A stretch of DNA of 38,929 nucleotides from a virus. Numbering within the stretch: the stretch's first letter is position 1; each line of letters starts with the position of its first letter. The translations under genes were made by a program, and so were the position numbers. Positions 4,999-27,437 of this stretch are shown here, piece by piece. Location: the UHGV virus genome UHGV-0094961; one strand, written 5' to 3'. The notes beneath the pieces are model-generated. The model ran no database searches and was not told the DNA's origin. It saw only the letters and a list, made by a program, of their open reading frames with translations.

Positions 4999-5017
4999 TA
5001 ATGTTACAGGAGTAGGA
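4999..5017 (+). promoter_or_regulatory. conserved 19-nt motif TAATGTTACAGGAGTAGGA (copy 1), candidate phage-RNAP promoter
   Basis: Exact 17-nt core ATGTTACAGGAGTAGGA present three times in window; this copy sits immediately after the RNAP gene, before the late module. Confidence 0.4.
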
Positions 5018-5458
5018 ATGAAGTTAAAACACACTAGTAAAACTTCCGACTACACTCTCAAGGTTCTGTATAAATCTGACGACGTTACAGACGCAGTGAA
5101 GCAACTGCACGAACTGGGCCATGGCATTAGTCGGGGCCTGGCTCCAGAGCAGCACTACTGGAGGGTGTTGGGAAGTATACTGGGTAAACAGTATATACTA
5201 GGAGTCTATGACTCCAAAGGCGACTTAGTCGGTGCTGTCAGCTACTACCCAGAGGCTGTAGAGGACTGTCATTACGTAGAGCCTGTGCTGTATACAGACT
5301 TCTTCGTATTGAAACCGGACAACGGCGCGGCAGTGTCTGTGATTATGCAGGGCCTGCACGCAATAGCCAAGTGCATGCGCGCTGGGCGTATCACCATTAG
5401 CCGAAGCACGTCCAGTAACACGTACAAAACAACTTATCATTTAGTGAGGTCAGAATGA
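5018..5458 (+). CDS. hypothetical protein
   Basis: 146 aa ORF directly after RNAP; AGGAGTAGGA immediately 5' of ATG; no recognisable motif. Confidence 0.5.
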   Translation: MKLKHTSKTSDYTLKVLYKSDDVTDAVKQLHELGHGISRGLAPEQHYWRVLGSILGKQYILGVYDSKGDLVGAVSYYPEAVEDCHYVEPVLYTDFFVLKPDNGAAVSVIMQGLHAIAKCMRAGRITISRSTSSNTYKTTYHLVRSE

Positions 5459-5718
5459 GTGGTGGTTTAGGTAGACTGTTAGGCAAGGCCACGGATATGC
5501 TGGGCCTTACTGACAACGCAGGATTAGAGGCGCAGCAGCGCTTGGCAGAGCAACAGGCCAGCGCAGCTAAACAACAGGCTGCCTTAGAGGCTAATAGCGC
5601 CGCAGATAATATTGCTGAGATTGACCCTGCAGGGGCTGCCTCTGCATCTGCAGATGCAATTACGTCTGAGCAGAAGAAACGGCGACAAGCAGGGCAGAGC
5701 AATCCTCTGGGCCTGTAA
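5455..5718 (+). CDS. hypothetical protein (Ala/Gln-rich)
   Basis: 87 aa ORF, ATGA translational coupling with upstream gene; sits just before portal gene. Confidence 0.45.
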   Translation: MSGGLGRLLGKATDMLGLTDNAGLEAQQRLAEQQASAAKQQAALEANSAADNIAEIDPAGAASASADAITSEQKKRRQAGQSNPLGL

Positions 5719-5727
5719 GGGGGTAGC

Positions 5728-7323
5728 TTGGAACAAAAAGCAACATTAGCAGAACTCTTTAAGAAGGACCAGGACGCGGGCGTCTTGGATGCCTCTGAGA
5801 AGTTCGCGCAGTGGACACTCAGCACTATCTTTACCCGGGACGATTCCCTGGACGGTAGACGCAGACCGCTAGAGCGTGACTACCAGAGCACCGGAGCGCA
5901 GCTGGTCAACACTGCAGCCACTAAGATTGTAGGCGCACTGTTCCCGCAAGGCGCTAGCTTCTTCCGGTTCTCCAAGAGTTCGGACCTGGACGAGTTCATT
6001 AGTTCGCTGGGTAGTGCAGCTACAGCAGAATCTAAGCTGGCCGAGGTCGAGAACACAGCGTCACAGAAAGTATTTGAGAAAGACGGTTATGCTGCGAAGT
6101 TGCAAGCTGTGAAGCTGCTGCTGGTTACAGGTAACGCGTTGGAGTATATTGATGAGCGGACAGGTAAATCCATCGTCTACTCAGTCCGTAACTTTACCGT
6201 TCGAAGGGATGGCAGCGGGAACGTCCTGCGACTCATTATCAGAGAGCGCGCAAGCGTCCAGGACCTGCCAGAGAGTTTCCAGAACACCTTCTACCGTGAC
6301 AAAGACCCATACGGCGACGTTGATATCTACACTGCCGCTTGTCGCAAGGTTAAGCGGACAGAGGAAGGCGTAGAGGTAGTAAGCTACGAGGTGTACCAAG
6401 AAGCAGACGGACACCACATTGGGGACAGCAGCACCTATCCTGAGCTGGAGCTTCCATACAACGTGCTGGTGTGGAACCTTGTTAGCGGTGAGCACTACGG
6501 ACGCGGCTTGGTAGAGGACTACGCCGGGGACTTCGCTAGATTATCAGTGCTGTCAGAAGCGTTAACTAACTACGAAGTTGAGTCTGCGCGGTTAATTCCG
6601 CTGGTTGACGCAAGCTCCGGGCTGGACGTGGACGAATTCGCAACGTCGGAGACGGGCGAGGCTGTGCAGGTGGGTGGTGGTGGTTCCAACGGGAACAACA
6701 AGTCCCCAGTCACTGCTTACGAGGGCGGCTCTGCCCAGAAGATTCAGTGGATTGCCAGCAACATTCAGATGCTCGAACAGAAACTGTCTCGTGCGTTTAT
6801 GTACACCGGTAACTCACGGCAAGGTGAGCGTGTCACGGCTTACGAGATTCGCCAGAATGCCAAAGAGGCGGAAGCCGCTATGGGCGGTGGGTTCAGTATC
6901 CTGAGCGACACCTGGCTGCGTAAGCTGGCGTACCTGTATACTGCACTGGTGTATCCTCGCTTTAAGCTTTATCTCAGCGAAGGTGTAGTGAACATCAACG
7001 TTACGGTGGGTACTTCTGCACTGGCTAAAGCCGCGGCGGCGGACAAGCTGTTAGAGGCGGCACAATCCATGCAGCTGGCTATCCCGGTGCTTGAGCAGAT
7101 TACTCCGCGCTTCAACAAAGATGCGTGCGTAGATTGGTACTTCGACGCCTACGGCATCGTCAGCGAGCCGTTCATGTACACCGAAGAGCAGCTGCAGCAG
7201 AAGCAACGGGTTCAGGATGCGTCTGCCGATGTATCCGCGGGTGTGGCGCAGGACCAACTCCAGGGCTTGACAGCAGCAGACCCGACAGTAGCAGGTAAGC
7301 AGCTGGGCTTATTACCAAGTTAA
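5728..7323 (+). CDS. head-tail connector (portal) protein
   Basis: 531 aa; TTG start with AAGGGGG RBS; NSRQGERVTAYEIRQ and LLLVTGNALEYI segments resemble T7 gp8 (QRTGERVTAEEIR, LVVAGNVLLYL). Confidence 0.85.
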   Translation: MEQKATLAELFKKDQDAGVLDASEKFAQWTLSTIFTRDDSLDGRRRPLERDYQSTGAQLVNTAATKIVGALFPQGASFFRFSKSSDLDEFISSLGSAATAESKLAEVENTASQKVFEKDGYAAKLQAVKLLLVTGNALEYIDERTGKSIVYSVRNFTVRRDGSGNVLRLIIRERASVQDLPESFQNTFYRDKDPYGDVDIYTAACRKVKRTEEGVEVVSYEVYQEADGHHIGDSSTYPELELPYNVLVWNLVSGEHYGRGLVEDYAGDFARLSVLSEALTNYEVESARLIPLVDASSGLDVDEFATSETGEAVQVGGGGSNGNNKSPVTAYEGGSAQKIQWIASNIQMLEQKLSRAFMYTGNSRQGERVTAYEIRQNAKEAEAAMGGGFSILSDTWLRKLAYLYTALVYPRFKLYLSEGVVNINVTVGTSALAKAAAADKLLEAAQSMQLAIPVLEQITPRFNKDACVDWYFDAYGIVSEPFMYTEEQLQQKQRVQDASADVSAGVAQDQLQGLTAADPTVAGKQLGLLPS

Positions 7324-7337
7324 CAACAGAGGCATAG

Positions 7338-8180
7338 ATGGATAACGTAGAAAACGGTCAGAACGTAGAAACTACACAGGTAGAGAACCAAGGTGGCCCT
7401 AAGATTCCGGGCCTAGGTGCTCCCCTTAGCGCCCCGAACAATCAAGGCGTGCAGGATGCACAGACCCCTACCCAGCAGCAACAGGGCAAAGACTCCCCTG
7501 ACCCTGCTAAGATTCCTCTGGATATCGAAGCCCTAAAAGCGGCCCCGGATAAGGGTGGCGATAGCGCTAAAGAGCAGCCCCAGGAGCTGGCTAAGACAGG
7601 CAACCCGACGATTGATGCCGGTGTAGCTATGTTGCAGAAAGTCTCTGGGTTAACTGACTCTGATATGGTGCGGGCACTTGGTAAGGCCCTGGAGTATCAG
7701 GACCCTAACCTAATCGATACGGCCTTCATTAAGGAACGTTTCGGAGAGCACGCTGCTTATGCAGAGTTGCTGGCTAAAGCGTACCTGGAAGACCAGGTTG
7801 GTCAAGCCACCAAAGCAGTACAAGAAGCTTACGATATCGTGGGCGGTAAGGAGAACTGGGAGGTAGCAGCGCAGCTGTTTAATTCCAAGGCCCCTGAACC
7901 TCTGCGTAACGCAGCTCGTGTACTCGCTAACTCGGGTGAGCTCAAGCAGGCCGCTGAGTTGGTAGCAAGCTTCTGCCGGGATATGGGTCTTATCAAGACA
8001 CAGAACCCAATGGTACGAGGCGTGGCCAGCAACAATGCACTGTCTGCTGCGGAATTCCGCGCAGAATATACCAAACTCCGTCAGGAAGCGGGCAACCGTA
8101 GCTTGGCGTCTCCACAGTTCAGTCAACGTTATAACGATTTGCTCGCACGCCGTGAAGCTGGTAAGCGCGTAGGTCTTTAA
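7338..8180 (+). CDS. capsid assembly scaffolding protein
   Basis: 280 aa acidic, low-complexity protein between portal and major capsid genes (T7 gp9 position); RBS present. Confidence 0.65.
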   Translation: MDNVENGQNVETTQVENQGGPKIPGLGAPLSAPNNQGVQDAQTPTQQQQGKDSPDPAKIPLDIEALKAAPDKGGDSAKEQPQELAKTGNPTIDAGVAMLQKVSGLTDSDMVRALGKALEYQDPNLIDTAFIKERFGEHAAYAELLAKAYLEDQVGQATKAVQEAYDIVGGKENWEVAAQLFNSKAPEPLRNAARVLANSGELKQAAELVASFCRDMGLIKTQNPMVRGVASNNALSAAEFRAEYTKLRQEAGNRSLASPQFSQRYNDLLARREAGKRVGL

Positions 8181-8205: not shown

Positions 8206-9225
8206 ATGGCCAACACTATTTATAATGGCAACCTGACTCGTCCGCACTGGGGCGGCGCAGACTCCGACGTAGACGTTCACCTGGAAGTGTACCAGAACGA
8301 AGTGGATACCCGCTTCCAGTACCGGGCTCTATTCCTGGGCCTCTCCAGCCAGCGCTCTATCAGCGGTTCCAACACCTACCGTATTGACCGACTGAACACC
8401 TCCTCGGTGAAAGGTCGTCGCTCCGGTGAGGCGCTGGATAGCACTCCGGTCCGTAACGATAAGATGATTATCGTGGTGGATACGGTGCTGTATATCCGTA
8501 ACCCGATTGACTATCAGGATGACTGGACCGGTCCGGACTTCCTGACCGAGATGGGTCAGAACAACGGCTCTGAGTTCGCAGAGGTCTTCGACCAGGCGCA
8601 CCTGATTCAGCTCATCAAGGGCCGTTCCTGGGTTGCGCCGGCGCACCTGAAACCGGCGTTCAACGACGGTATCGAGGTAGGCGCAGCTATCCTGGTTCCG
8701 GGTACCACCACCGCCACTCAGCTGACCCAGGCTGAGATGGAGGCGAACGCCATGAACATCAACCTGGCCCACAAGGCTGGTATTGACGAACTCATCAAGC
8801 GTAAGACCCCGCTGGCGGACATGATTACCCTGGTGGACGTCGATACCTATTCGCGTCTGCTGGAGCATCCGAAGCTCCTGAACCTGGACTTCGGCGCGTC
8901 CAACAATGATGGTTACAAAGACCGACGTGTAGTGAAGATGAACGGTGTGCCTGTAGTTGAGTGCACCGAGTTCCCGACCGCTGCTGGTACGCACCCGCTG
9001 GGCTCCGCTTACGCCGTCACCCCTGACGACGCGCTGTGCCGTATGGTGACTTTCAGCAAGTCCAAGACCCTGGTGACTGTTGAGGCTAAGCCGTTCACCT
9101 CCCGTATCTGGGATGATGAGCGAGAGTTCAGCAACGTGCTGGACTGCTACGCAATGTACAACATCGGTCTGCGTCGTCCGGACACCGCTGCAGTGACCAA
9201 GTTCACCTTCACCACCAAGTCCTAA
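8206..9225 (+). CDS. major capsid protein
   Basis: 339 aa; C-terminal CYAMYNIGLRRPDTAAVTKF resembles T7 gp10A AKYAMGHGGLRPEAAGAVVF; position and length canonical. Confidence 0.9.
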   Translation: MANTIYNGNLTRPHWGGADSDVDVHLEVYQNEVDTRFQYRALFLGLSSQRSISGSNTYRIDRLNTSSVKGRRSGEALDSTPVRNDKMIIVVDTVLYIRNPIDYQDDWTGPDFLTEMGQNNGSEFAEVFDQAHLIQLIKGRSWVAPAHLKPAFNDGIEVGAAILVPGTTTATQLTQAEMEANAMNINLAHKAGIDELIKRKTPLADMITLVDVDTYSRLLEHPKLLNLDFGASNNDGYKDRRVVKMNGVPVVECTEFPTAAGTHPLGSAYAVTPDDALCRMVTFSKSKTLVTVEAKPFTSRIWDDEREFSNVLDCYAMYNIGLRRPDTAAVTKFTFTTKS

Positions 9226-9419: not shown

Positions 9420-9468
9420 ACAGTTAACGGCAATTGAACCTGCCTAGTTCCGTTTGATGAGGAAACCT

Positions 9469-9801
9469 ATGAAAGATATCCGTAACATTATAACCGGTAT
9501 GACCCGCATGGAGGCCATAACCCAAGGTGGTGTAGAGTACGGCACAGGGGTGTGGCACAAACGCTGCACTGGGGACAGTACAGCCAATGCTCTGCGCATC
9601 ATCTCAGAGGCCATGTTAAAGCAGGCTGTACCTGTTAGGGTTGAGCAGTACGTAGTAAGCGGCACCCACACCCGGGAACCTAAGCACGTGTTTGATTTGT
9701 GCCGATATCTGGTGGATGTTATGGGTCTTCGGGGTTTTACGTTTAACGCAGCAGCTAGAACTGTTGAGTGTAACGTGTTCGAGCCTGTTAACAAACAGTA
9801 A
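9469..9801 (+). CDS. hypothetical protein
   Basis: Start placed at ATG 9469 (GAGGAAA RBS) inside track ORF 9454..9801; 110 aa. Confidence 0.45.
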   Translation: MKDIRNIITGMTRMEAITQGGVEYGTGVWHKRCTGDSTANALRIISEAMLKQAVPVRVEQYVVSGTHTREPKHVFDLCRYLVDVMGLRGFTFNAAARTVECNVFEPVNKQ

Positions 9802-9877
9802 TACGCGCCCCTGGTGCCTTCGTGCATTCTTATGATTTTTGTTTTCATTTTCTTCTAAGCAAGTGAGGCATACTAGG

Positions 9878-9920
9878 ACCTGGTGCCTTCGGGTGCCCGG
9901 GGCTTTTTTTTTTTTTTTTT
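9878..9920 (+). terminator. putative rho-independent terminator (GC-rich structured segment with UUCG loop candidate, then T17)
   Basis: 17 consecutive T at 9904..9920 after a GC-rich segment; lies downstream of the capsid module where T7-like phages carry their major terminator. Confidence 0.5.
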
Positions 9921-9965
9921 GTCCCTGTCTTAAGGGTCCAAGGGGTCTTTAATAGAGGAACAAAT

Positions 9966-10535: not shown

Positions 10536-12896
10536 ATGGCGCAATCATTAGAAGGTACTATTCAGAGCTTGCTGCAGGGCGTTTCCCAGCAGGTTCCGAG
10601 AGAGCGCCAACCAGGACAACTGGGGGCGCAGCTGAACATGCTCAGCGACCCGGTTTCCGGTATCCGCCGCAGACCCCCGGGTGAGATTGTCTGGGAAAGC
10701 ACGATTGATAATCCAGGGCTTGATTCCCTGTTCACTGAATACGTAGAGCGTGGAACTGACGGCAGGCACCTGCTGATTAACACCAGCAACGGTAACTGGT
10801 GGTTACTGGCTAAGAATGGAAAGACCATCCTTAACTCCGGAAAAGACCCGTACTTTATTACCACCGTGGGTCAGACCTCTTTGCAGACCGCGAGTATTGC
10901 TGGACTGACTTATATCCTGAATACGGAGATGGCCCCGAACACAACCGTGGACAATACGGGGCGTATTGACCCAGGCACCACTGGGTTCTTCTACGTTAAA
11001 TCTGCAGCATTCCAGAAACGCTGGAACATCACTGTTACATCTGCCGGGGTAGATTACTCCGGGGACTACACCGCCCCAGCTGCTGGCAGTACCAGTGGTA
11101 ACGCTGAGGAGGTATCAGGTGCCTACGTTGCTCAGCAGCTGCGAGACTCTCTTGTAGCGAATGGATTGCCAGCTGGGAACGTTAGCGTACGCGGCGCATA
11201 CTTGTTCTTCTATGGGTTGAGCAACTGTGTGGTATCCTCCGACGCTGGCGATACTTATGCTGGGGTATCCAACCAGTCTCGTGTAGACCAGGAGCAGGAC
11301 CTACCTGCACAGCTCCCAGCGCAAGCTGACGGGGCGATGTGTCGTGTAGGTACAGCCTCGTCTGAGACAGCGTGGTACCAGTTCAGCTACAGCACCCGCA
11401 CCTGGTCTGAGGTGGGAGCGTACGGCAGCATCACCAAGATTACGAACATGCCCCGAGAGCTTGCTGCAGATGACAACATTATTGCGCGGGATTGGGAGGG
11501 GCGTTTAGCTGGTAACGACGACAATAACAGCGACCCCGGATTCGTGGAGAATGGATACATCACCGGCATTGCAGCTTTCCAGGGCCGCTTGGTTCTGCTT
11601 AGTGGTAGCTCCGTGGATATGTCTGCCTCAGGTCTGTACCAGCGCTTCTACCGCTCCACTGTGACGTCTCTGCTGGATACGGACCGTATCAGCATTAGCT
11701 CTGCGTCTGCACAGGATTCTGTGTATCGTACCGCTGTGCAGTTCAACCGGGACTTGGTCCTGTTTGCTAACAGCATGCAGGCGGTTGTGCCGGGTTCAGC
11801 GGTACTCACCCCCACTAACGCAAGTATTAGCATCACCAGCACCTACGAGTGTGATAGCCGTGTGACTCCGGTAATGGCGGGGCAGACGGTAATCTACCCG
11901 AATAAGCGCAACAACAGCTACGCGGGTATACTGGAGCTAATCCCATCACCTTACACCGCGGCACAGTACACTACACAGGATGCCACGGTGCACCTACCCC
12001 GGTATATCCCAGGCAGGGTATTGCAGATGCAAAACTCCAGTGTCACCAATATGGCCTTCTCGCGCATGTCTGGAGAGCGTAATAGCCTGCTGGTCTATGA
12101 GTTTATGTGGGGTGGGAGTGATGGTGCTAAGATGCAAGCGTCGTGGCATAAATGGACGTTCCCATATCCAATCCTGAGCGTGCAGGCGCTGGAGGATGAG
12201 GTGTTCTTGTATATACAAGGGCCCAGTCCCAGCAACAAGCTTTTGATTGTGTCTATGGACCCGCGTGAAGGTTATCAGCTGGGTTCGGAGTACCGCGAAG
12301 CCTACTCGGATTTGCAGAAGCAAGTTCAAGTGCAGGATGGGGTGTTTACTGTTCCGGCGGTACTGCGCCCCGTCGGGTGGGCTGACCGTTACAAGGAAGA
12401 GCTTATCTTAACGTACCTACCCAGCAACCCTATGGGGCCTACTGAGGTTGGCATCAAGGAGATTGCCGGGGAGAACACCCTGCGGGTTGTGCGTGGTGTA
12501 CCTGATGGCGCCTACGTAATTGGGAGACGCTACCGCAGTACGTTCACTCTAACTACGCCTATTCTACGGGACCAGAATGACAAGCTAGTGGGAAGTGGGC
12601 ACGTGCGCCTGCTGCGCCTGGACGTAGCAGTACGTAACTCTGGGCACTTCGGTGTACAGGTACTAGACACCCCACGGGACGTCAACTGGGGTGGGGAACT
12701 AACCGGTATCTTGATGAACTCAAAGGAGCTAACGCTTGGGCAGGCCCTGCGTATGGACTTGGCTACGATTACCGTGCCGTGCCGTACTAACGCAGACACA
12801 ACCGAGGTGACGTTATTTACTGAGGGTTCTATGGAACTGAACGTGCTGGATATCTCGTATACCCTGCGCTACAACCAACGCAGACGGAGAATTTAA
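10536..12896 (+). CDS. tail tubular protein B (gp12-like)
   Basis: 786 aa ORF after tubular A; size matches T7 gp12 (794 aa); RBS AAGGAGAGG. Confidence 0.75.
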   Translation: MAQSLEGTIQSLLQGVSQQVPRERQPGQLGAQLNMLSDPVSGIRRRPPGEIVWESTIDNPGLDSLFTEYVERGTDGRHLLINTSNGNWWLLAKNGKTILNSGKDPYFITTVGQTSLQTASIAGLTYILNTEMAPNTTVDNTGRIDPGTTGFFYVKSAAFQKRWNITVTSAGVDYSGDYTAPAAGSTSGNAEEVSGAYVAQQLRDSLVANGLPAGNVSVRGAYLFFYGLSNCVVSSDAGDTYAGVSNQSRVDQEQDLPAQLPAQADGAMCRVGTASSETAWYQFSYSTRTWSEVGAYGSITKITNMPRELAADDNIIARDWEGRLAGNDDNNSDPGFVENGYITGIAAFQGRLVLLSGSSVDMSASGLYQRFYRSTVTSLLDTDRISISSASAQDSVYRTAVQFNRDLVLFANSMQAVVPGSAVLTPTNASISITSTYECDSRVTPVMAGQTVIYPNKRNNSYAGILELIPSPYTAAQYTTQDATVHLPRYIPGRVLQMQNSSVTNMAFSRMSGERNSLLVYEFMWGGSDGAKMQASWHKWTFPYPILSVQALEDEVFLYIQGPSPSNKLLIVSMDPREGYQLGSEYREAYSDLQKQVQVQDGVFTVPAVLRPVGWADRYKEELILTYLPSNPMGPTEVGIKEIAGENTLRVVRGVPDGAYVIGRRYRSTFTLTTPILRDQNDKLVGSGHVRLLRLDVAVRNSGHFGVQVLDTPRDVNWGGELTGILMNSKELTLGQALRMDLATITVPCRTNADTTEVTLFTEGSMELNVLDISYTLRYNQRRRRI

Positions 12897-12897: not shown

Positions 12898-13485
12898 ATG
12901 TGGTGGATGGTTGCGGCCGTGGCCGCTAAGGCCGTTCTGGGGCAGAGTGCTCAGATTGAAGTGTCCAAGGCCAGGAACAAGGCTGTGATTCAACAGACAG
13001 CCAAACAGTTAAACGATATAGCGCTGCAGCGTGCACAGTCCAGGGACAGGACTGAGGTATCCCTGTTTAACATCCAGCAGCAGAAACTGCAGGCGCAGAG
13101 CCAAGTAGGACTGCAGGCAGCAGCCTCTGGCACTATGGGGGCCTCTGTTAAAGACGCCGTAGCCACCGTGAACACAGTAGCAGGGCGACAAGAGGCTAGC
13201 GTACGGGACCAGCAGGCAACCCAGGAAGAGGGCTTCCGGCTAATGACGGACAAGGCTGTGGATAGTGGTCTGGCTAACATGGACATGGAGGACCCGTACG
13301 ATAACATGTTTAACTCGTTGCTAAGTGTTGGGGCATCTGCCGTTGGGCAGTACGCCGGTAACGCTGCGTCATCTTCTGACTCTGGCGGCTCATCCCCTGG
13401 TAGCGGTGCGTCGGCTACACAGAACACGGCATCCTCCTATGACTTATGGGGGAGTAAGGGTAACAGCTCAGTTCATACCTGGTAA
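12898..13485 (+). CDS. internal virion protein (gp14-like)
   Basis: 195 aa; hydrophobic N-terminus; position between tail tubular B and large internal core proteins. Confidence 0.55.
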   Translation: MWWMVAAVAAKAVLGQSAQIEVSKARNKAVIQQTAKQLNDIALQRAQSRDRTEVSLFNIQQQKLQAQSQVGLQAAASGTMGASVKDAVATVNTVAGRQEASVRDQQATQEEGFRLMTDKAVDSGLANMDMEDPYDNMFNSLLSVGASAVGQYAGNAASSSDSGGSSPGSGASATQNTASSYDLWGSKGNSSVHTW

Positions 13486-16237: not shown

Positions 16238-19200
16238 ATGGCTCAGTTTCTGAACCAAGAACCGAATCCACAGGAAAAGGATTCTGCTAAGGGCGCAACA
16301 CTTAAACCTGCGCCTGAGCGCGTAGATTGGAACGATGCCGGAGACAACGGCTTAAACGCACTGGAGCGTGCCTCCTTACTGGCGCAGGCCAAGACCCCAG
16401 CTACTACAGCCGGGGAGAGCTTTGCGTCTGGTATGGGTAACAGCATCATCGCCGCAGCTATCCGTAAGGCCTCTGCCCCGGCATTTGACCGGGACCAGAA
16501 CTTTAACGCCAAGCAGACTCTGAGCAGCGATACCAGGGCTAAGCTGTATGCTCCGAATCAGGAAGAGATTGAGTACCTGCACGACTCTGTATCGGTCGAG
16601 GATTACAACTACCGCATGCAGCAGATGCTTGAGCAACGCAACCGTGACCGCTTAATGGCTGACAACACGGTAGCCGGGTTCGCGGGTATGTTGGTGGGTG
16701 ATTCTCCGTTCATCCTGGCCCCGATGTCTGCCGCTGGTATTGCTGGCCGCGCAGGCTTAGCTGCACGGACTGCTATCCGCGCTGCTGACGTAGGCTCCGC
16801 ATTCTATGCGCAGGACCAACTGGGCCAGTCTGCTGCGGTAACTGCACTGGTAGCGGGCGTAGCTGGGTTGGACCAGCTCTGGGATATGTCTAGGGCTGCT
16901 AAAGCTGCTGCTAAGGCCCGTACTGGGCGTGAGCCTATGTTCGACCCAGAAGCGCCTACAACTCGTACAGCGAGGGACGCTAATGTTACAGGAGTAGGAG
17001 AGGGAGAGGAAATCCTTACTAAGACACTGGATGAAAGCATCCAAGTATCTAGAAACAATACCGCCTCCGTGAACATGAAAGCACAGCACGTAGTTCAGTT
17101 CTTGAAGAAGTCCGAACACTTAACAGCAGGCCAGAAGGCTATTCTGGACACGCTGGGCGATGCTGTAAATGACATTGATTTTAAACTGGTAGCAGGCTCC
17201 GCAAACCGCAGCCGCTACACTTACGCACAGCAAGATTTAGCTAAGCGTGGAGAGGTGTCTCTACGCGCACCTACGCGAGCTAATGGCAGCACATGGACTA
17301 CAGCAGGGGACGCACTGCGTGCTATGGATGCAGACACAAGCAGGGTAGCCGTGCACGAACTGATTCATGCCGCCACTGCGCGCGCCGTTGACAGTAACCC
17401 AGAGATTGCTAAGCGCCTGGATGAAGTGCGCGCTGTTATTGCAGCGGACTCCACCTTGACGCCGCGTATGCGGTATTACGCTAGTAATGTGCACGAGATG
17501 CTGGCAGGCTTAGGTGACAGCCCTGAGTGGGTTGAGCATCTGGCGCGGACGAAATCCCCAACCGGTAAGAGCATGCTCCGCCAACTGGGCGAGTACATCA
17601 TGAATGCCCTGGGCATCAAGGCCAAAGGTTCTGCCTTGGAAGATGTCTTGGATGCGTACGAGGACGCCGTTAAGTGGACAGCTAAGGATTATGCAGACCA
17701 AGCCCAGAGCTTCCGTAGTGAAGCCTTCCAGGACCTGGCGGGCAGCACTACCCTAAACGAGGCTAAGGGTGCCCAAGCTATGCTGGATGGCGCTAAGAAG
17801 AAGCTCTCTACTATGTTTGCCCTGTACGATAACATCGCTCAAGGCAATGAAGACTTGGCTAAACTGCTAGTGTCGGATGCGTCCGCAGTAGGCGGCCGTC
17901 GCCCGTCTGTAGTGGACTTCAAGCGCAACCTCACTTTGGAGATGGACGCCAGCGCTAGCGTAGTGGAAGACGCTATCCTGGGCGCGTTGAAGGATAAGGG
18001 TGTAGGTTTCTCTGAGCGCTTCTTCCATCGGAGCAAGTTCCGCGCTGAGCGGGCTGCACTGGAAGACCGCCTGAGCAAGTACCTGGATGCTGCCTACAGT
18101 GCTGATGTAAACGGCCGAGCTGTTCCCGTACCGGATGTAGAGATTGCCCCACTGGTTGACGCCTATCGCCGCTCTGGCTGGGCAGGCAAGTGGCACGAGC
18201 ATATGCTCAATGCTGGTCTGGTGGATGATGGTGCGTTGGTTAAATCCGATTACTACTTCCCGCGTCAGTACAGCTACGACAAGATGCGCCAAGGTATTGC
18301 GCAGGGTAACACTCTGGACGACTACCGCGCCCTGTTCAGGTCCGCCCTGCGGGACGTGTACCCGAGCATGGAGTCAGAGGTAGTGCAGCGTGTTGCAAAG
18401 GAGATGGTTGACGGTATCTACAACGGCCGTGCAGGGCAGTCCGGCCCGATGTGGAAGCAGCTGATTAACGGCATGGGTAACGACGAGGTCGTTATGGCTA
18501 TGCGTAGCGCTGGTGTAGATGAATCTGCAATCCAGAGTTTCCTGGCTGGTAACGTACGCGAATCCGGTAGCACGTCCCCTGCGCGGAACCTGCGTCAGCG
18601 TACTCGGTTCAACATGGACAAAGAGTATCTGGTGAACGGTAAGAGCATGCGCATGCAGGACCTGATGGATACTGATGTAGCCAAGGTTATGCACGGGTAC
18701 ACTAACCGTATGTCTGGGCGTGTAGGCATGGCCTATGCAGGCGTACAGGGCCTGGGCCAGCTAGCTAAGATGATTGATGAGTCTAAGCACGCACTGGCGG
18801 ATTCCGCTAAGTGGGAGAAGACAGTCAATGACACCATCGACTTTATCCTGGGTGGGGCGCCTGCTGACGCCGGACAGCTTCCGGATTTGCTGCGTGCAGC
18901 CGGGAACATGGCTAACGCCACCATGCTTAAGAACTCCGGCCTGTATCAGCTGACTGACACTGCCCTGGCTATGAAGGAGTTCGGTATGGCTAGAGTGCTG
19001 CGTAGTATGCGCGACCAGCCTTGGTTCAAGGAAGGTGCCGTAGCTATCAAGACTCCGGATATGGCTACCCGTCTAGACACTGTACTGCGAGGTAATATCC
19101 AGAAGGAGATGCGCTTCCGCTGGTTGAATACGTACGCCGACGATAACCTGGACCTGACCCGTCAGGCCTCTTGGTTCAATGTAACCCAGAACGTTGGGCA

Positions 19201-19936: not shown

Positions 19937-19937
19937 T

Positions 19938-20906: not shown

Positions 20907-21209
20907 ATGGCAGGGGCAGCTAAACGCAGTCGCCTCTCGGAGCTGCACCGTATGTTCACCGAGGCCTTGCTTGAAGAAATCAAGCAGTCTAAGGAAGATG
21001 AGGTGCCGCTCCCCGCAGCAGATAAATCGGTCATTGCTAAGTTCTTGAAGGATAACGACATCACCGCGGACGCAGATTCCGAGGAGATGCAGGACCTTCG
21101 TGACGAATTCGATGACGAGCTAGTGGCGCGCAGAGAGGCGCGTAAGCAAGAGATTCTAAATAAAGTTGGTGGTTCAGACTCTGAGGACTTACTAGAAGGA
21201 ATTGTCTAA
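20907..21209 (+). CDS. terminase small subunit (DNA maturase A-like)
   Basis: 100 aa acidic protein immediately upstream of, and start/stop-overlapping with, the large terminase gene. Confidence 0.55.
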   Translation: MAGAAKRSRLSELHRMFTEALLEEIKQSKEDEVPLPAADKSVIAKFLKDNDITADADSEEMQDLRDEFDDELVARREARKQEILNKVGGSDSEDLLEGIV

Positions 21210-23065
21210 TGGTATCGGTGAAGACTGCGCGAAGACTGCGCATGCTCAACCAGAAACTTACTGGTTATAGTGCGAATCCGCGCAGTATTCCCAAAGAGGA
21301 GCGCGAGGATATCGCGGTGATGATGGCCGCGGCACTAAGCGACTTCCGGGAATTCGCGTACATCGGTATGCGGTTCCTGGGCTTTACGCTCACGGACATG
21401 CAGGCCGACATTGCAGAGTACATGCAGAAGGGCCCCCGGAAGCGCATGGTGGCCGCGCAGCGTGGTGAGGCTAAGTCTACACTAGCTGCACTGTACGCCG
21501 TCTGGAGGCTCATCCAGGACCAATCCTGCCGTATCCTGATTGTGTCCGGTGCAGAGAAGCAGGCGTCCGACGTAGCGAACTTAATCATTCGTATGATTGA
21601 GACATGGCCGCTGCTGTGCTATTTGAAGGCTGATCCTACTCGTGGGGACCGTACTTCATTCGAAGGTTATGACGTACACTGTGACCTTAAGCCGCTGGAG
21701 AAATCCGCCAGCGTAGCCTGTGTAGGTATCACTGCATCCCTGCAGGGTAAGCGCGCGGACCTGCTGATTCCGGATGATATCGAGACCACCAAGAATGGTT
21801 TAACGCAAACCCAGCGTGAGCAGCTGCTGATGATTTCTAAAGACTTCGCGGCTATCTGTACGCACGGGGATACGCTGTACCTGGGTACACCACAGACCAA
21901 GGACAGTATCTATAAAACCCTGCCGGGACGTGGCTTCGAGGTCCGCGTGTGGCCCGGGCGCGTTCCGTCTGTTGAAATGGAAGAGCGATATGGAAGTACA
22001 CTTGCTCCTTATATCCTGGAGCTTATTGAGCGCGGCTATAAACGCACCGGCTTCGGAGTCGACGGGACGCTAGGCGAGAGCACGGACACCGGGCGCTATG
22101 ACGAGGATGCGCTGATTGAGAAGGAGCTGGACTTTGGTCCGGAAGGCTTCCAGCTGCAGTACATGCTCGACACCACCCTGTCCGACCAAATGCGTACGCG
22201 CATCAAGCTATCGGATGTGCTGGTTTACTCTGGCAGCCAGGATTCCTCCCCGGAGACGTTCTCCTACATCGCGGACCGCCGGTATCTGTACCAGCACGAG
22301 CATGAAGGGATTATGGGCCAGCAGATGTACTTCCCGGCATTCTACGGGGATATGCACCTTCCGTACCAGCATAAGGTACTGGTAGTGGACCCGGCTGGTT
22401 GTGGTGGGGACGAAGTGTCCTACGCTGCTGGAGGCGCTGCGAACTCGTACATTCACCTATTCTCCGTAGGCGGATTCCAAGGAGGTATCAGCGAAGAGAA
22501 CATTGATAAACTGATTGACCTGTGTGTAGAGTTGGACATCCCGGATATGGTGGTGGAGAGCAATATGGGGCACGGTACCGTGTCTATGCTTATCCTGAAC
22601 CGATTACGTGAGCGGCGTCTCGCCGGTATCGGTGTAAGGGACCTGAATAACTGCACGCAGAAAGAGCGTCGTATCATCGACACAATCAGCCCAGTTACTC
22701 GTCGCCATCGCCTGGTAGTGCATGAGCGTGCTATTCACGACGATATCAGTACCTGTATGGCATATTCCCGCGATAGGCGTTGGCTGTACTCTGCGTTCGC
22801 GCAGTTGTCCGGTATCACGTACGACCGCGGTAGCCTTGCGAAGGATGACCGGGCAGACGCAATCGCCATGATGGTGGCTACGCTGAATGGGCATCTGGTG
22901 GAAGATGAGAAAGTGGTGGCGGAGCGTGAGTCTGAGAAGATGGCTCGGGCCTTCATTGAGAACCCACTGGATTGGGCACAGAGCAAAGTGTCTAAGGGCT
23001 TTCGTGGTGTAGCTGCTCGGCTACATAACCGGGGCAGAGGTAAACAACATAGAGGAAGAAGATAA
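21209..23065 (+). CDS. terminase large subunit
   Basis: 618 aa ORF at the T7 gp19 position; size and position consistent, nuclease and ATPase motifs not verified by eye. Confidence 0.8.
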   Translation: MVSVKTARRLRMLNQKLTGYSANPRSIPKEEREDIAVMMAAALSDFREFAYIGMRFLGFTLTDMQADIAEYMQKGPRKRMVAAQRGEAKSTLAALYAVWRLIQDQSCRILIVSGAEKQASDVANLIIRMIETWPLLCYLKADPTRGDRTSFEGYDVHCDLKPLEKSASVACVGITASLQGKRADLLIPDDIETTKNGLTQTQREQLLMISKDFAAICTHGDTLYLGTPQTKDSIYKTLPGRGFEVRVWPGRVPSVEMEERYGSTLAPYILELIERGYKRTGFGVDGTLGESTDTGRYDEDALIEKELDFGPEGFQLQYMLDTTLSDQMRTRIKLSDVLVYSGSQDSSPETFSYIADRRYLYQHEHEGIMGQQMYFPAFYGDMHLPYQHKVLVVDPAGCGGDEVSYAAGGAANSYIHLFSVGGFQGGISEENIDKLIDLCVELDIPDMVVESNMGHGTVSMLILNRLRERRLAGIGVRDLNNCTQKERRIIDTISPVTRRHRLVVHERAIHDDISTCMAYSRDRRWLYSAFAQLSGITYDRGSLAKDDRADAIAMMVATLNGHLVEDEKVVAERESEKMARAFIENPLDWAQSKVSKGFRGVAARLHNRGRGKQHRGRR

Positions 23066-23450: not shown

Positions 23451-23633
23451 ATGGCAATTGCAAAAGCAACCTCAGCGCAACAGCAGGAGCTGTTGCGTCA
23501 GCTGAACATTCTCGGTAAGGACCTGTATGCTATCCTTACGCAGCCGCAGAACGTGGCCCAGACTGGTGCTGCCTTCGATACCAAGATTGCTGCGCTTGAA
23601 GCCGCGGTGGCCGCAGTGAAGGCTGCTAGCTAA
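23451..23633 (+). CDS. hypothetical small protein
   Basis: 60 aa; TAAGGAG RBS; Ala-rich helical-looking. Confidence 0.4.
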   Translation: MAIAKATSAQQQELLRQLNILGKDLYAILTQPQNVAQTGAAFDTKIAALEAAVAAVKAAS

Positions 23634-24037
23634 TGCGTAAACTGGTCGCTGGGTTGCTGCTCGCGGTTACTCTGACTGGTTGCTCGGCGACCTCTGCACT
23701 CACCGGATTAGTTGGTTCTAAGCCGGATGTATCTGCTCAGGTTGGTGCCGAGAACACCAAACAAACCGTTGGCTTGAATAACAAGGTGGACTCCAGCACC
23801 ACCAACAAAACTGATGTACAGGATTCTAACGTAGGCACTTTGGACACGTCCAGTAAGAAGCAGGTGCAAACTATTAGCACCGGGACAATCCAGGCAGAAC
23901 GCCTGCAGGTGGTTAACAATGATAGTTACAGTCTTATCCTCGCCGGATTAGCTGGGGCCAGCATTCCTCTGGTCTTCCTAGTGGTCATTCTGGTGATTCG
24001 TAAGCTGTTCAGGAAGAAGGGGCAGCAGGATGATTAA
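23633..24037 (+). CDS. lipoprotein with C-terminal transmembrane segment; candidate unimolecular spanin
   Basis: N-terminal signal with lipobox LTGC (MRKLVAGLLLAVTLTGC), polar Thr/Ser/Asn-rich middle, C-terminal TMD SLILAGLAGASIPLVFLVVILVI followed by RKLFRKK; adjacent to holin and endolysin. Confidence 0.5.
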   Translation: MRKLVAGLLLAVTLTGCSATSALTGLVGSKPDVSAQVGAENTKQTVGLNNKVDSSTTNKTDVQDSNVGTLDTSSKKQVQTISTGTIQAERLQVVNNDSYSLILAGLAGASIPLVFLVVILVIRKLFRKKGQQDD

Positions 24038-24281
24038 GGTGGGAGACATGGTTGGAGCAGACCTCGCTACCCGGGCAGGTGCAGCAGTTACCGGTGCTAC
24101 GGTATCAGGAGGTTGGTTGGCAGAGTTAATGAGCTGGAACTGGAGCACTATCAGCTTCATCACTGCGACTGTGTGCGCAGTGCTAACCCTGGCGTGGAAT
24201 GCGTATTACAAGCGACGTACATTCAAGCTCCTAGAAGAGCAGGCGCGTAAGGGGACTATTAAATATGAGTTTAAGGACTAA
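24030..24281 (+). CDS. holin, pinholin-like (start possibly ATG 24048)
   Basis: Small protein with a Gly/Ala-rich weakly hydrophobic first segment and a second TMD (WSTISFITATVCAVLTLAW), charged C-terminus; AAGGTGGGAG RBS before ATG 24048; immediately upstream of SAR endolysin. Confidence 0.55.
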   Translation: MIKVGDMVGADLATRAGAAVTGATVSGGWLAELMSWNWSTISFITATVCAVLTLAWNAYYKRRTFKLLEEQARKGTIKYEFKD

Positions 24282-24873
24282 GGTTATTGCGGCCCTCACG
24301 GGGGCCACTATGCTGGGTGGTGCTATTACTGGGGTGGTTCAGCACAACGAGGGATTGAGCCTTACCGCCTATAAGGATAGTGCCGGTGTCCCTACAATCT
24401 GCTACGGGGAGACAAAGGGCGTCAAGATGGGCCAGAGAGCCACGCTGAGCGATTGTCAGAAGCAACTGATAGAATCAGCAGGGGCACATGCAAAGGCCCT
24501 TGACGGGCTTCCTATGCAGCTCTCTGACGTAGCTCTGGTTGGGTCTGTAGACTTCATTTATAACGTAGGCGTAGCTGGCTTCAACGGCAGTGCTGTGAAG
24601 CGGCACCTCAAAAGCCTGAATTACGCAGAAGCTGGAAAGGCCGTACTGGACTGGCGCTATATTAGCAAGTATCAGCAGAAATCCCCGGGCATCGGTTGGG
24701 TGTACAAGGGCAGCAACCGCTGGACCTTCGACTGCTCTCAGTATATTAACGGGCAGCGCAATAAAGTGTGCTGGGGCCTATGGGAGCGCAGACAGTGGCA
24801 GAGCAAGGCCGTTGGGAATCAGTATAAGAATGTAAATGCTGCAGTGGCAGCTCTTACTAAGACCGGAGGATAA
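24265..24873 (+). CDS. endolysin, GH24 lysozyme with N-terminal SAR (signal-arrest-release) domain
   Basis: NEGLSLTAYKDSAGVPTICYGE aligns with T4-lysozyme catalytic region (E...D...T); N-terminal VIAALTGATMLGGAITGVV is a Gly/Ala-rich hydrophobic segment like P21/phiKMV SAR endolysins. Confidence 0.8.
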   Translation: MSLRTKVIAALTGATMLGGAITGVVQHNEGLSLTAYKDSAGVPTICYGETKGVKMGQRATLSDCQKQLIESAGAHAKALDGLPMQLSDVALVGSVDFIYNVGVAGFNGSAVKRHLKSLNYAEAGKAVLDWRYISKYQQKSPGIGWVYKGSNRWTFDCSQYINGQRNKVCWGLWERRQWQSKAVGNQYKNVNAAVAALTKTGG

Positions 24874-26829
24874 ATGGCGTTAATTAGATTAGTAGCTCCA
24901 GAGCGGGTATTCTCCGACTTGGCGAGCATGGTAGCATATCCAAACTTTCAGGTACGGGACAAGATTAGCCTGCTGGGCAGCGCCGGTGGGGACTTCACCT
25001 TTACTACTGCCGCGTCGGTAGTGGATAACGGAACTGTGTTTGCTGTACCTGGTGGGTATCTACTCCGTAAATTCGTGGGTCCGGCATACAGCTCCTGGTT
25101 CAGCAATTGGGCGGGCATAGTAACGTTCATGAGCGCACCTAATAGGCACCTGGTTGTGGACACGGTCCTGCAGGCCACGAGTGTGCTCAACATCAAAAGC
25201 AACTCTACGCTAGAGTTTACCGATACCGGAAGAATCCTACCGGATGCTGCGGTTGCACGTCAAGTGCTTAATATTATCGGCTCGGCACCCTCGGTGTTCG
25301 TACCGTTAGCAGCGGATGCCGCGGCGGGCAGCAAAGTCATTACGGTGGCTGCCGGGGCTTTGTCTGCGGTAAAAGGTACGTACTTGTATCTTCGCTCTAA
25401 CAAGCTGTGTGATGGTGGTCCTAACACGTACGGTGTAAAGATTTCCCAGATTAGGAAAGTGGTTGGGGTTAGCACCTCCGGTGGCGTCACCAGTATTCGG
25501 CTGGATAAAGCGCTGCACTATAACTACTACCTGTCTGATGCCGCGGAAGTAGGTATCCCGACAATGGTGGAGAACGTAACCTTAGTATCCCCGTACATCA
25601 ACGAGTTCGGCTACGACGATTTGAACCGGTTCTTTACTATCGGTATCTCTGCCAACTTTGCCGCGGACTTGCACATCCAGGACGGGGTTATTATTGGCAA
25701 CAAACGCCCCGGGGCTTCTGATATAGAAGGGCGTAGTGCTATCAAGTTCAATAACTGCGTAGATAGTACTGTTAAGGGTACGTACTTCTACAACATCGGA
25801 TGGTATGGGGTAGAAGTGCTCGGCTGCTCAGAGGACACGGAAGTACACGATATCCACGCCATGGACGTACGCCACGCAATCTCTCTGAACTGGCAGAGCA
25901 CCGCAGACGGGGACAAGTGGGGAGAGCCTATCGAGTTCTTAGGCGTTAACTGCGAAGCCTACAACACAACCCAAGCTGGGTTTGATACTCATGACATTGG
26001 TAAGCGTGTGAAGTTCGTTCGATGCGTTTCGTACGACAGTGCTGACGATGGGTTCCAAGCGCGCACTAACGGGGTAGAGTACTTGAACTGTCGAGCTTAC
26101 CGTGCAGCTATGGACGGGTTCGCCTCCAACACCGGTGTAGCCTTCCCTATCTATAGGGAGTGCCTAGCTTATGACAACGTACGCTCTGGCTTTAACTGCT
26201 CGTACGGCGGTGGCTACGTTTATGACTGCGAGGCTCACGGTAGCCAGAATGGTGTGCGAATCAACGGGGGCCGTGTTAAGGGTGGTCGGTACACCCGCAA
26301 CTCCAGCTCTCACATCTTCGTTACTAAGGACGTAGCTGAGACAGCGCAGACATCCCTGGAGATTGATGGCGTGAGCATGCGCTACGACGGTACCGGGAGA
26401 GCTGTGTACTTCCACGGGACTATGGGCATTGACCCTACCCTGGTATCTATGTCCAATAACGACATGACCGGTCACGGCTTGTTCTGGGCATTGCTGAGCG
26501 GCTACGCCGTTCAACCTACGCCCCCGCGCATGTCCATGAACTTACTGGATGACACGGGTATCCGTGGAGTGGCAACCCTGGTGGCTGGTGAGGCTACAGT
26601 CAACGCCCGTGTACGCGGAAACTTTGGCAGCGTAGCTAACTCCTTCAAGTGGGTGTCTGAGGTTAAGTTGACGCGGTTGACCTTTCCCTCTAGTGCTGGG
26701 GCCTTGACGGTTACTGGCGTAGCTCAGAACCAGGATGTGCCTACACCTAATCCGGACCTAAACAGCTTCGTGATTAGGAGCAGTAACGCAGCGGACGTAT
26801 CCCAGGTAGCCTGGGAGGTGTATCTCTAA
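24874..26829 (+). CDS. tailspike protein, probable right-handed beta-helix (candidate polysaccharide depolymerase)
   Basis: 651 aa; repeated short beta-strand-like segments rich in G/N/V/T/D (NCVDSTVKGTYFYNIGWYGVEV, FVRCVSYDSADDGF, LNCRAYRAAMDGF) suggest parallel beta-helix; lacks T7 gp17 N-terminal anchor; last late gene. Confidence 0.6.
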   Translation: MALIRLVAPERVFSDLASMVAYPNFQVRDKISLLGSAGGDFTFTTAASVVDNGTVFAVPGGYLLRKFVGPAYSSWFSNWAGIVTFMSAPNRHLVVDTVLQATSVLNIKSNSTLEFTDTGRILPDAAVARQVLNIIGSAPSVFVPLAADAAAGSKVITVAAGALSAVKGTYLYLRSNKLCDGGPNTYGVKISQIRKVVGVSTSGGVTSIRLDKALHYNYYLSDAAEVGIPTMVENVTLVSPYINEFGYDDLNRFFTIGISANFAADLHIQDGVIIGNKRPGASDIEGRSAIKFNNCVDSTVKGTYFYNIGWYGVEVLGCSEDTEVHDIHAMDVRHAISLNWQSTADGDKWGEPIEFLGVNCEAYNTTQAGFDTHDIGKRVKFVRCVSYDSADDGFQARTNGVEYLNCRAYRAAMDGFASNTGVAFPIYRECLAYDNVRSGFNCSYGGGYVYDCEAHGSQNGVRINGGRVKGGRYTRNSSSHIFVTKDVAETAQTSLEIDGVSMRYDGTGRAVYFHGTMGIDPTLVSMSNNDMTGHGLFWALLSGYAVQPTPPRMSMNLLDDTGIRGVATLVAGEATVNARVRGNFGSVANSFKWVSEVKLTRLTFPSSAGALTVTGVAQNQDVPTPNPDLNSFVIRSSNAADVSQVAWEVYL

Positions 26830-27126
26830 GTAGCTCTAGAGCTTCCCTGGGGTATCTCTACGGTATCCCGGGGCACTGCTGGGGTGCTGCTGGGGTGCGC
26901 GTCTATACCTGGACCTGAAATTTATTAGACTCACGCGAGCCCCTCCCTCACCCTCAACGCGCCCAATTGCCCCCATAGGGGGGTGCCTAGCGTCAATTTA
27001 GGGGGGGGGGCACTGGTGGGGCCTGCTAGTGCGCACTAGAGCGCCTCAGCGGGCCTGTGCTGCGCTCTAAGGCTATTGCCAGTGCTACCCTATGGCTATC
27101 ACTGTGCGTTCACTAGGGCGCTTCCT

Positions 27127-27151
27127 GTGCGCTCTCTGTGCGCTCTCTGTG
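27127..27151. repeat. tandem direct repeat GTGCGCTCTCT x2.3
   Basis: Direct reading of sequence. Confidence 0.8.
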
Positions 27152-27384
27152 GGCCATAGGGGCGTGCTCTGCCTTGCTTATTTTGTGCGCCTCAGTGGGT
27201 CTGCCTAGTGCCTGTCTAGTGCCCGCGCAGTGGGGCCATAGGGTATGCCTGGTGCTATCCCGAGTGTGCACTAGGCTATCCACTGGCTATCCTTAGTGCT
27301 TTACATTGTGCTAATTATGTGCTACGCTGCGCGCTCCCCACTAGGGCGCACATCCACCACACCGCACTATCCAGCGCTATCCCT

Positions 27385-27414
27385 TTGCTCTTACTTTCAT
27401 TCGAAAGCTATTAT
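27385..27414 (+). promoter_or_regulatory. candidate sigma70-type promoter (TTGCTC-18-TATTAT)
   Basis: -35-like and -10-like hexamers with 18-bp spacer in the non-coding left-end region; host-RNAP early promoters are expected here. Confidence 0.3.
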
Positions 27415-27418
27415 GAAA

Positions 27419-27437
27419 TGATGTTACAGGAGTAGGA
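27419..27437 (+). promoter_or_regulatory. conserved motif TGATGTTACAGGAGTAGGA (copy 3), candidate phage-RNAP promoter near genome left end
   Basis: Same 17-nt core in the non-coding terminal region; no start codon follows. Confidence 0.35.

Follow-up and report, generated by a model that had tools for sequence, protein, structure and literature searches.

KP34-type promoters for a phage-encoded single-subunit RNA polymerase at three sites of a Drulisvirus genome

The window, a 38,929-nucleotide stretch of viral DNA (UHGV-0094961) that was analysed as a whole, is a KP34-like Klebsiella phage of the genus Drulisvirus, with approximately 90% nucleotide identity to KP34 over the aligned parts; its promoter system differs from that of KP34 in nothing essential. 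Features relevant to its transcription (Table 1) include the gene for a single-subunit RNA polymerase (RNAP), the first gene of the late unit (a gp38 homologue), an intrinsic terminator whose KP34 homologue is annotated at 26623-26660 (and listed in PMC4411677), and a gp16-like gene whose matching family, phrog_342, is labeled 'internal virion protein with endolysin domain'. The equivalent of the KP34 direct terminal repeat occurs singly in this permuted window and marks the physical genome end upstream of the third of three promoter copies (P1, P2 and P3). Departures from KP34 are an endonuclease VII-like gene past P3 and an extra ORF ahead of the terminator.

Table 1. Promoters, genes and other elements of the window discussed in the text
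Feature	Position	Strand	Evidence
Single-subunit (T7-type) RNAP gene, 822 aa	2525..4993	+	Pfam RNA_pol, 4.5e-92
Specificity-loop codons, EEVRVRIDCMNLSAVLVHNRDFKTC, SAVL class	4595..4669	+	Translation; identical to KP34
Weak-promoter homologue, ACTTTGGACATCCGGCAAGT	4946..4965	+	Within RNAP gene 3′ end; 1 mismatch to KP34 ACTTTGGACATCCGTCAAGT
Strong promoter P1, TAATGTTACAGGAGTA, KP34 type S1	4999..5014	+	Exact match; KP34 22197-22212, flanks 99% identical
gp38 homologue, first late-unit gene	5018..5458	+	phrog_5167, 2.8e-60
Intrinsic terminator, hairpin and 17-T run	9880..9920	+	Scan match 9887-9902; past capsid module, between P1 and P2
Internal virion protein gene, gp16-like, 1232 aa, hosts P2	16238..19936	+	phrog_342, 1.7e-240; syntenic with KP34 gp48
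Strong promoter P2, TAATGTTACAGGAGTA, type S1	16981..16996	+	Exact match; aligned to KP34 33721-33736
KP34 direct terminal repeat equivalent	26945..27169		Aligned to KP34 1-216 and beyond, and to KP34 43510-43809
Strong promoter P3, TGATGTTACAGGAGTA, type S2	27419..27434	+	Exact KP34 S2; aligned to KP34 475-490

The 17-nt word ATGTTACAGGAGTAGGA occurs exactly three times on the plus strand, at 5001-5017, 16983-16999 and 27421-27437, as the original prediction had it. The locations given there also proved correct, namely past the RNAP gene (copy 1 lies 5 nt past the stop of the 822-aa gene), within the gp16-like gene, and at the non-coding left end. When up to three mismatches were allowed, four matches were found (three of them exact), a count reached in none of 100 dinucleotide-preserving shuffles, which bears out the claim that the repetition is not a chance one. 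Apart from a poly-T run, this is the only word of at least 12 bases with three or more copies in the window. Copies 1 and 2 share the 19 nt TAATGTTACAGGAGTAGGA, as had been proposed for two copies, and copies 2 and 3 are identical over 18 nt; past these 18-19 nt, the flanks of the three copies are unrelated and without extended homology, so the motif lies outside any larger duplication. A three-mismatch match at 436-452 (ATGTCACAGGACAAGGA), within the exonuclease gene, has four mismatches to the 16-mer described below and was set aside as chance, as was another exact 17-mer repeat, CGCACCTACGCGAGCTA, at 17266 and 19894, the first copy of which is not conserved in KP34, RCIP0094 or SFN6B. Promoter scans returned no sigma-70-like site (TTGACA, 16-18 nt spacer, TATAAT) at the three positions, and no Rfam family was found in the window. 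RNA structure was likewise absent at the three promoters (z from -1.0 to +0.85), as expected of a duplex DNA signal.

The motif corresponds to a published element. In KP34, Lu et al. (2019; PMC6834552) defined in vitro a strong promoter, T(A/G)ATGTTACAGGAGTA, with the next G as +1, using PCR and oligonucleotide templates and 5′-RACE on in vitro RNA. Variants S1 and S2 each supported transcription by KP34 RNAP, whereas the 14-mer core common to both was far less active by itself; 5′-RACE on in vitro transcripts placed +1 at 22213, the first G past the 16-mer, and the three KP34 copies are located past the RNAP gene, within the gp16-like gene, and at the left end (PMC6834552). The window carries these 16-nt sequences letter for letter (S1 twice, beginning TAATG, and S2 once, beginning TGATG), each directly followed by GGA, oriented with the genes, and in syntenic placement with KP34. 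Because the experimentally defined 16-mer starts 2 nt upstream of the 17-mer, the latter spans -14 to +3; the inferred +1 is G5015 at P1, G16997 at P2 and G27435 at P3. Conservation at syntenic positions, suggested earlier as a check, was found not only in KP34 but also in RCIP0094, Shigella phage SFN6B, and relatives in IMG/VR, and the three sites were absent from the one Koutsourovirus (a different genus) in which they were looked for. In Koutsourovirus KKP 3828, a search for a repeated promoter of this kind gave only an 11-mer with non-matching flanks, which was unconvincing.

The KP34 weak promoter, at which initiation in vitro was weak and imprecise (PMC6834552), also has its counterpart in the 3′ end of the RNAP gene of the window, with a G in place of the T of KP34; most relatives carry the G. 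An invariant non-consensus site, TAATGTGATACGAGTAGGAACAAC, is present at KP34 12983, outside the window. Another conserved repeated motif of the genus, AGCCTATAGCGTCCTACGGGGCGCTATGTGAA, was described by Eriksson et al. (2015) as the 'putative phage promoter' of Kp34likevirus. It occurs in the window at 28927-28958 and 29716-29747 but is not the RNAP promoter: KP34 RNAP made no RNA from a template with this motif (PMC6834552), and the strong hairpin into which it folds marks it as a different element.

The RNAP of the window is 95% identical to KP34 gp37 (822 aa, no gaps) and aligns to T7 RNAP from the PDB (E = 6.5e-66), residues 701-706 corresponding to T7 R756-I761. Its specificity loop is that of KP34 and K2044 (Table 5 of PMC4411677), and the genome that carries the promoters therefore also encodes a cognate polymerase with the matching loop. 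The 37 residues that differ from KP34 include V76, beside the AT-rich recognition loop; this difference would probably be of no consequence. The KpnP RNAP (PMC12272871), a T7-like enzyme of 907 aa, is not relevant here. Taken together, the identical promoters, syntenic sites, and 95% identical RNAP support the original reading of the motif as a promoter for the phage polymerase. The accompanying claim of a distinct specificity was right in that the motif differs from T7, T3, and SP6 promoters, but this specificity is not new, having been published for KP34 in 2019 (PMC6834552).

Relatives were retrieved from IMG/VR by protein-anchored and flank-anchored searches, which replaced a bare 14-mer scan that had yielded mostly chance matches in unrelated contigs. 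Position -7 is occupied by A or C in these relatives, with the same base at P1, P2, and P3 of a given genome, and this base covaries with the RNAP loop: A occurs with SAVL and C with TIMR at all 62 P1 loci. Loop, P1, and P2 agree in 49 of 49 cases, and the -7 bases of P1 and P3 in 33 of 33. In class A, which includes the window and KP34, a loop of the form ...NLSAVLVHN... accompanies A in all three promoters, and in class C, ...NLTI(M/L/V)RVHN... accompanies C in all three; at P2 the switch is synonymous (ACA/ACC). The pairing holds in every genome examined despite recombination-shuffled surrounding genes. By a rough test (neighbor-joining trees with Fitch counts), the -7 allele changed at least eight times on the tree of gp48 flanks and seven times on the gp38 tree, but twice on the RNAP tree, and a small number of evolutionary events may account for the covariation. 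These comparisons lend indirect support to RNAP-dependent initiation at the promoters, and suggest that a four-residue loop change retargets the polymerase by one base pair, the Arg introduced at position 706 possibly reading the G on the template strand. It is quite possible, if still short of probable, that polymerase and promoter in Drulisvirus fall naturally into two classes of specificity. Both kinds of loop had been recorded in 2015, ahead of the discovery of the promoter. The literature searched contained neither the pairing of loop and -7 base nor a paper with the C-type promoter sequence, the promoter logos of PMC11880802 lying outside that search; this pairing is the sole mildly new point of the analysis.

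The three sites differ in their surroundings. P1 is located 19 nt ahead of the gp38 ATG in 62 of 62 related loci, and the ATG of this first late gene, at 5018, is +4 of the P1 transcript (in KP34, gene 38 begins at 22216, with +1 at 22213). The leader of that transcript would thus be 3 nt, which would be odd for efficient translation, and AGGAG at 5008-5012, within P1, would act as the gp38 Shine-Dalgarno sequence only on read-through RNA. P2, upstream of the tail fibre, terminase, and lysis genes, codes for part of ANVTGVGEGE. Four of its six third-codon positions are invariant among 51 unique relatives, as against 431 of 500 (86%) that vary in the surrounding 1500 nt, and these invariant positions point to selection at the DNA level. 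P3 lies approximately 250 nt past the terminal-repeat equivalent in non-coding DNA corresponding, by alignment, to the left end of KP34, which has no CDS; its conserved 3′ part and downstream flank were matched in 35 related IMG/VR stretches.

Other functions of the motif were considered. It could mark a single-strand nick, as in phiKMV-like phages, or be a replication or packaging signal, instead of or besides a role in transcription, although this is very unlikely. T7 phiOL, which is linked to DNA processing, lies near a genome end, as does copy 3. Nicks in phiKMV-like Pseudomonas phages are tied to CGACNNNNNCCTACTCCGG (PMC4482731), and direct sequence comparison shows that CCGGAGTAGG, the complement of the 3′ half of this consensus, equals -7 to +3 of the C-type promoter and matches that of the window at nine of 10 bases. 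However, the CGAC half of CGACNNNNNCCTACTCCGG is missing at all three sites, nicks are not known from Drulisvirus, and RNAP is indicated as the reader both by the in vitro results and by the covariation of the motif with its specificity loop. The sole near-match to the nick consensus, at 17883-17901 on the minus strand (one mismatch), is not conserved in relatives, where its synonymous sites vary freely, and is attributable to chance.

Still more improbable is that the motif is a translation signal, composed of a Shine-Dalgarno AGGAG and a spacer, rather than a promoter. At copy 1, the AGGAG within the motif does lie 5 nt ahead of the gp38 start codon, where it could be used for ribosome binding on read-through RNA, and the constant promoter-to-ATG distance in the 62 loci fits such a role, but copies 2 and 3 have no downstream start codon, the former being in frame in the middle of a 1232-aa gene and the latter non-coding. 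Moreover, a ribosome-binding site needs neither 16 invariant bases nor the segment from -16 to -8, covariation with the RNAP specificity loop is not expected of one, and the identical sequence is directly active as a promoter in vitro (PMC6834552). At most, a role in translation would be secondary and limited to copy 1. Although the raw sequence alone offers three copies of one short word, the notion that they arose by chance or are what is left of a longer segment, duplicated or mobile, can practically be dismissed in view of the unrelated flanks, the absence of any other triplicated word of 12 bases or more, the shuffles, and the retention of each copy, at the syntenic site, in dozens of relatives whose flanking sequences have diverged, no loss of copies being seen in close relatives.

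Accordingly, the three motifs are almost certainly strong promoters of the phage's own single-subunit RNAP, of the KP34 type found in Drulisvirus. Promoter activity and start site are established in vitro for identical sequences with the 95% identical KP34 enzyme, to which this analysis adds that the sequences are identical, syntenic, and conserved, and that they covary with the polymerase loop. We infer that the promoters are used in vivo in this phage and that labor is divided among P1, P2, and P3; any role of P3 in replication or packaging would likewise be putative. In the proposed mechanism, host RNA polymerase would transcribe the early genes and those for DNA metabolism, as far as the RNAP gene. 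The newly made RNAP would then bind the double-stranded 16-bp promoter, its specificity loop (residues ~691-715) contacting the central bases, melt the GTA/G region, and initiate at the adjacent downstream G (5015, 16997, and 27435), giving transcripts that start with GGA. P1 would drive the late operon from gp38 through the portal, scaffold, and capsid genes to the terminator, with read-through to the tail genes, and P2 would re-initiate within the gp16-like gene for the tail fibre, terminase, lysis cassette, and K1-lyase tail spike. P3, just within the left genome end and comparable to T7 phiOL, would direct the polymerase to the early region.

This arrangement resembles that of the T7 group: promoters of approximately 17 bp serve a homologous single-subunit RNAP, whose specificity loop reads the central bases, and some of them lie within genes and one close to the left end (phiOL in T7). 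The T7 class III consensus TAATACGACTCACTATAG and the window promoter have in common a TAAT 5′ end and the TA before the G start, but the central 10 bases are unrelated (GTTACAGGAG in T7 versus ACGACTCACT in the window), such that the architecture is alike and the specificity different. In addition, three strong copies in the window compare with 18 T7 promoter copies, by the count in PMC11880802, and the RNAP gene comes at the close of the middle region instead of among the early genes. The phage-specific promoters of LUZ19 and phiKMV (GgtTATGTCACacACAnnGG), those of LUZ19 having been mapped in vivo (Putzeys et al. 2024, PMC10914365), are likewise few, are laid out in parallel, and share an ATGTYAC core with the window. 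In contrast, the 3′ halves differ (ACACANNGG in LUZ19, AGGAGTAGG in the window), and LUZ19 has an antisense copy in its early region, whereas the copies in the window are all on the coding strand.

The element in the window is already known, its sequence, copy number, and positions being as in Lu et al. (2019), and, the side observation on loop and -7 base apart, nothing is added to the biology beyond that work. For annotation, transcription start sites in the window can be assigned precisely at the three late and left-end promoters, with one weak site in addition. Most deposited Drulisvirus records leave KP34-type start sites unmarked. The joint switch of one promoter base, at all three sites, and four loop residues holds modest practical interest: if the two specificity classes are real, they would constitute a ready-made pair of near-orthogonal RNAP-promoter systems.

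The 17-mer ATGTTACAGGAGTAGGA occurs without mismatch at three plus-strand positions in a pattern scan of the window (starts 5001, 16983 and 27421), confirming the exact triplicate reported in the original prediction. With up to three mismatches allowed, four matches were found, a count reached in 0 of 100 dinucleotide-preserving shuffles, and a k-mer census of the window returned it as the only word of at least 12 bases, a poly-T run aside, with three or more copies. In an alignment of 140 nt around each copy, identity ended at 18–19 nt, with a TAATG... start common to copies 1 and 2 and a ...GGAG end common to copies 2 and 3. Since the flanks beyond are unrelated, a larger duplicated segment, which the original prediction had named as evidence against a promoter, is ruled out as the source of the motif. 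Folding analysis of the promoter regions showed no unusual RNA structure.

A megablast search with the RNAP region returned 254 phage records, almost all from KP34-group Klebsiella phages (Drulisvirus) at 90–97% identity, and the gene order of KP34 is that of the window (see table). Relative to KP34, the window is circularly permuted and incomplete: position 1 lies inside the exonuclease gene (KP34 ~17471) and position 38929 inside the DNA polymerase gene (KP34 ~11711), so that ~4.6 kb of the genome is absent, while the KP34 terminal repeat has a single placement at ~26945–27169. Because its tail spike carries K1 capsule-specific lyase domains, the phage probably targets K1-capsule Klebsiella, as does NTUH-K2044-K1-1.

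Features of the window, with the basis of each assignment
Feature	Coordinates	Strand	Basis
RNA polymerase	2525-4993		Pfam/PHROGs
Weak promoter homologue	4946-4965		1 mismatch to KP34 ACTTTGGACATCCGTCAAGT
Strong promoters P1 and P2, TAATG... 16-mer	4999-5014 and 16981-16996	+	exact match to KP34
Portal	5728-7323		Pfam/PHROGs
Major head protein	8206-9225		Pfam/PHROGs
Hairpin + T17 terminator	~9880-9920
Internal virion proteins (two genes)	13503-16187 and 16238-19936		Pfam/PHROGs
T7-type tail fibre	19938-20894		Pfam/PHROGs
Terminase large subunit	21209-23065		Pfam/PHROGs
Spanin, holin, endolysin	23633-24873		Pfam/PHROGs; holin by synteny with KP34
K1-lyase tail spike	24874-26829		Pfam K1-lyase_N, Rider and C domains
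Strong promoter P3, TGATG... 16-mer	27419-27434	+	exact match to KP34

A full-text search with the motif string led to Lu et al. 2019 (PMC6834552), where the promoter element itself is already described. In that work, a template spanning the end of the KP34 RNAP gene was transcribed in vitro by KP34 RNAP, and 5′-RACE on the transcripts placed the start at nt 22213. KP34 carries the 16-mer TAATGTTACAGGAGTA at 22197–22212 and 33721–33736 and TGATGTTACAGGAGTA at 475–490, which were equally active in vitro, their common 14-mer being far weaker; the 3′ end of its RNAP gene also holds a weak, imprecise promoter, ACTTTGGACATCCGTCAAGT (PMC6834552). Each of the three window sites (P1 after the RNAP gene, P2 inside the gp16-like gene, P3 at the left end) aligns with its KP34 counterpart, and the window RNAP has the same length (822 aa), is 95% identical without gaps, and has an identical specificity loop. 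Its "recognition loop" is MRNVKVPGIGGKY, with V at the sixth residue (RNAP residue 76; window 2750–2752) where the five phages in Table 5 of Eriksson et al. all have A. Because sequences, sites, RNAP and specificity loop all match, the proposal that the 17-mer is a promoter of the phage-encoded RNAP proves correct, and the copies are identified by homology as KP34-type promoters, the functional evidence for which is all in vitro and from KP34. A 2025 survey reports 467 predicted KP34-like promoters in 135 genomes (PMC11880802); a motif scan of Koutsourovirus KKP 3828, a phage of another genus, found none.

The sites are conserved at syntenic positions, as had been suggested for checking, in KP34 and in IMG/VR loci anchored on gp38 (P1, n=62), the internal virion protein (P2, n=52), or the conserved 3′ part of P3 plus its downstream flank (P3, n=35). 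P2 lies in coding sequence for ANVTGVGEGE. In 51 unique sequences, variation is seen at 431 of 500 surrounding third-codon positions; of the six within the promoter, four never vary, another differs in just one sequence, and the remaining one, at −7 from the predicted +1 G directly after the 16-mer, is split between A and C (25 to 26). Relatives also tolerate A/G at −15 and T/A at −13. At P1, the distance from promoter to gp38 ATG is 19 nt in 62/62 relatives, even in those with an inserted ORF downstream of the RNAP gene. G5015 precedes this ATG by 3 bases, and a P1 transcript would begin GGA-AUG (window 5008–5020). The AGGAG inside P1 could serve as the gp38 Shine-Dalgarno sequence on RNA read through from upstream, but only there, since RNA initiated at P1 has just 3 nt before the start codon; a ribosome-binding role fits copy 1 only. 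A reading of the copies as phiKMV-type nick sites fails, as that consensus is absent at all three and its sole near-match, elsewhere in the window, is not conserved.

With the copies taken as promoters, host polymerase would transcribe from the left before phage RNAP exists; a sigma-70-like site with 11/12 consensus matches lies at 28447–28475. Once made, phage RNAP would initiate at G5015, G16997 and G27435, starts predicted by homology. Transcription from G5015 would run through the head genes as far as the hairpin + T17 terminator, and that from G16997 would reinforce the tail fibre, terminase, lysis and tail spike genes. G27435 lies ~250 nt inside the left end, reminiscent of T7 phiOL; we infer these in vivo roles for P2 and P3.

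Several other elements were observed. The missing 4.6 kb holds a fourth site that resembles the promoters, TAATGTGATACGAGTA and then GGAACAAC, in intergenic DNA downstream of the DNA polymerase gene (KP34 12983–12998; RCIP0094 18481–18496; SFN6B 12368–12383). It matches the strong promoter at 13/16 bases, is also followed by GGA, and is invariant in 56/56 IMG/VR contigs of both loop classes, with a variable upstream flank and no base change at −7 between the classes. Such a site may be a promoter, weak or alternative, or may carry some other signal. The promoter motif proposed by Eriksson et al. 2015, from which Lu et al. 2019 (PMC6834552) found no transcription, has two copies (28927–28958 and 29716–29747). 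Both form long hairpins with interrupted stems (z −3.8 and −4.9), with compensating changes between copies in the inner stem and outer helices that pair despite differing sequence, and look like RNA processing or termination hairpins of the early region. Relative to KP34, an extra 110-aa ORF (9469–9801; PHROGs families of unknown function) lies between gp43 and the capsid-module terminator (region 9420–9925). Because a partial copy of the terminator 5′ arm, GCCCCTGGTGCCTTCG at ~9808–9823, precedes the true terminator (~9880–9920, then 17 T), an insertion at the terminator is suggested. Downstream of P3, the otherwise non-coding left end holds an endonuclease VII-like ORF (phrog_1035, 6.5e-21; region 27706–28309), absent from KP34 and annotated as HNH endonuclease in some relatives, followed by a strong hairpin terminator (14-bp stem + T10, 28265–28309). 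The non-coding left-end region 26830–27420 is rich in short repeats, including CTGTGCGCTCTCTGTG at 27125 and 27136 and recurring GCTATCC and CACTAG words, and has a G10 run at ~27001–27010.

The A/C split at −7 recurs at P1 and P3 and is concerted within genomes: the −7 base is concordant between P1 and P3 in 33/33, and the specificity loop, P1 and P2 agree in 49/49 genomes. Across 62/62 P1 loci, the loop NLSAVLVHN accompanies A and NLTI(M/L/V)RVHN accompanies C. The loop (codons at window 4625–4651) includes variable positions 703–706, which align to T7 Q758–I761, within the specificity-loop segment that makes the promoter base contacts in the T7 RNAP–promoter structure. In a rough test on neighbour-joining trees, the −7 allele required at least 8 changes on the gp48-flank tree and 7 on the gp38 tree but 2 on the RNAP-flank tree, against ~17 for shuffled states. 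Thus, the promoter copies track the polymerase rather than the local genetic background, as predicted for a polymerase recognition site. The covariation may reflect few events. Both loop classes were already tabulated in 2015 (Eriksson et al. 2015, PMC4411677), and a full-text string search of the searchable literature did not return the C-type promoter; the co-switch of loop and −7 base is a modest new lead.
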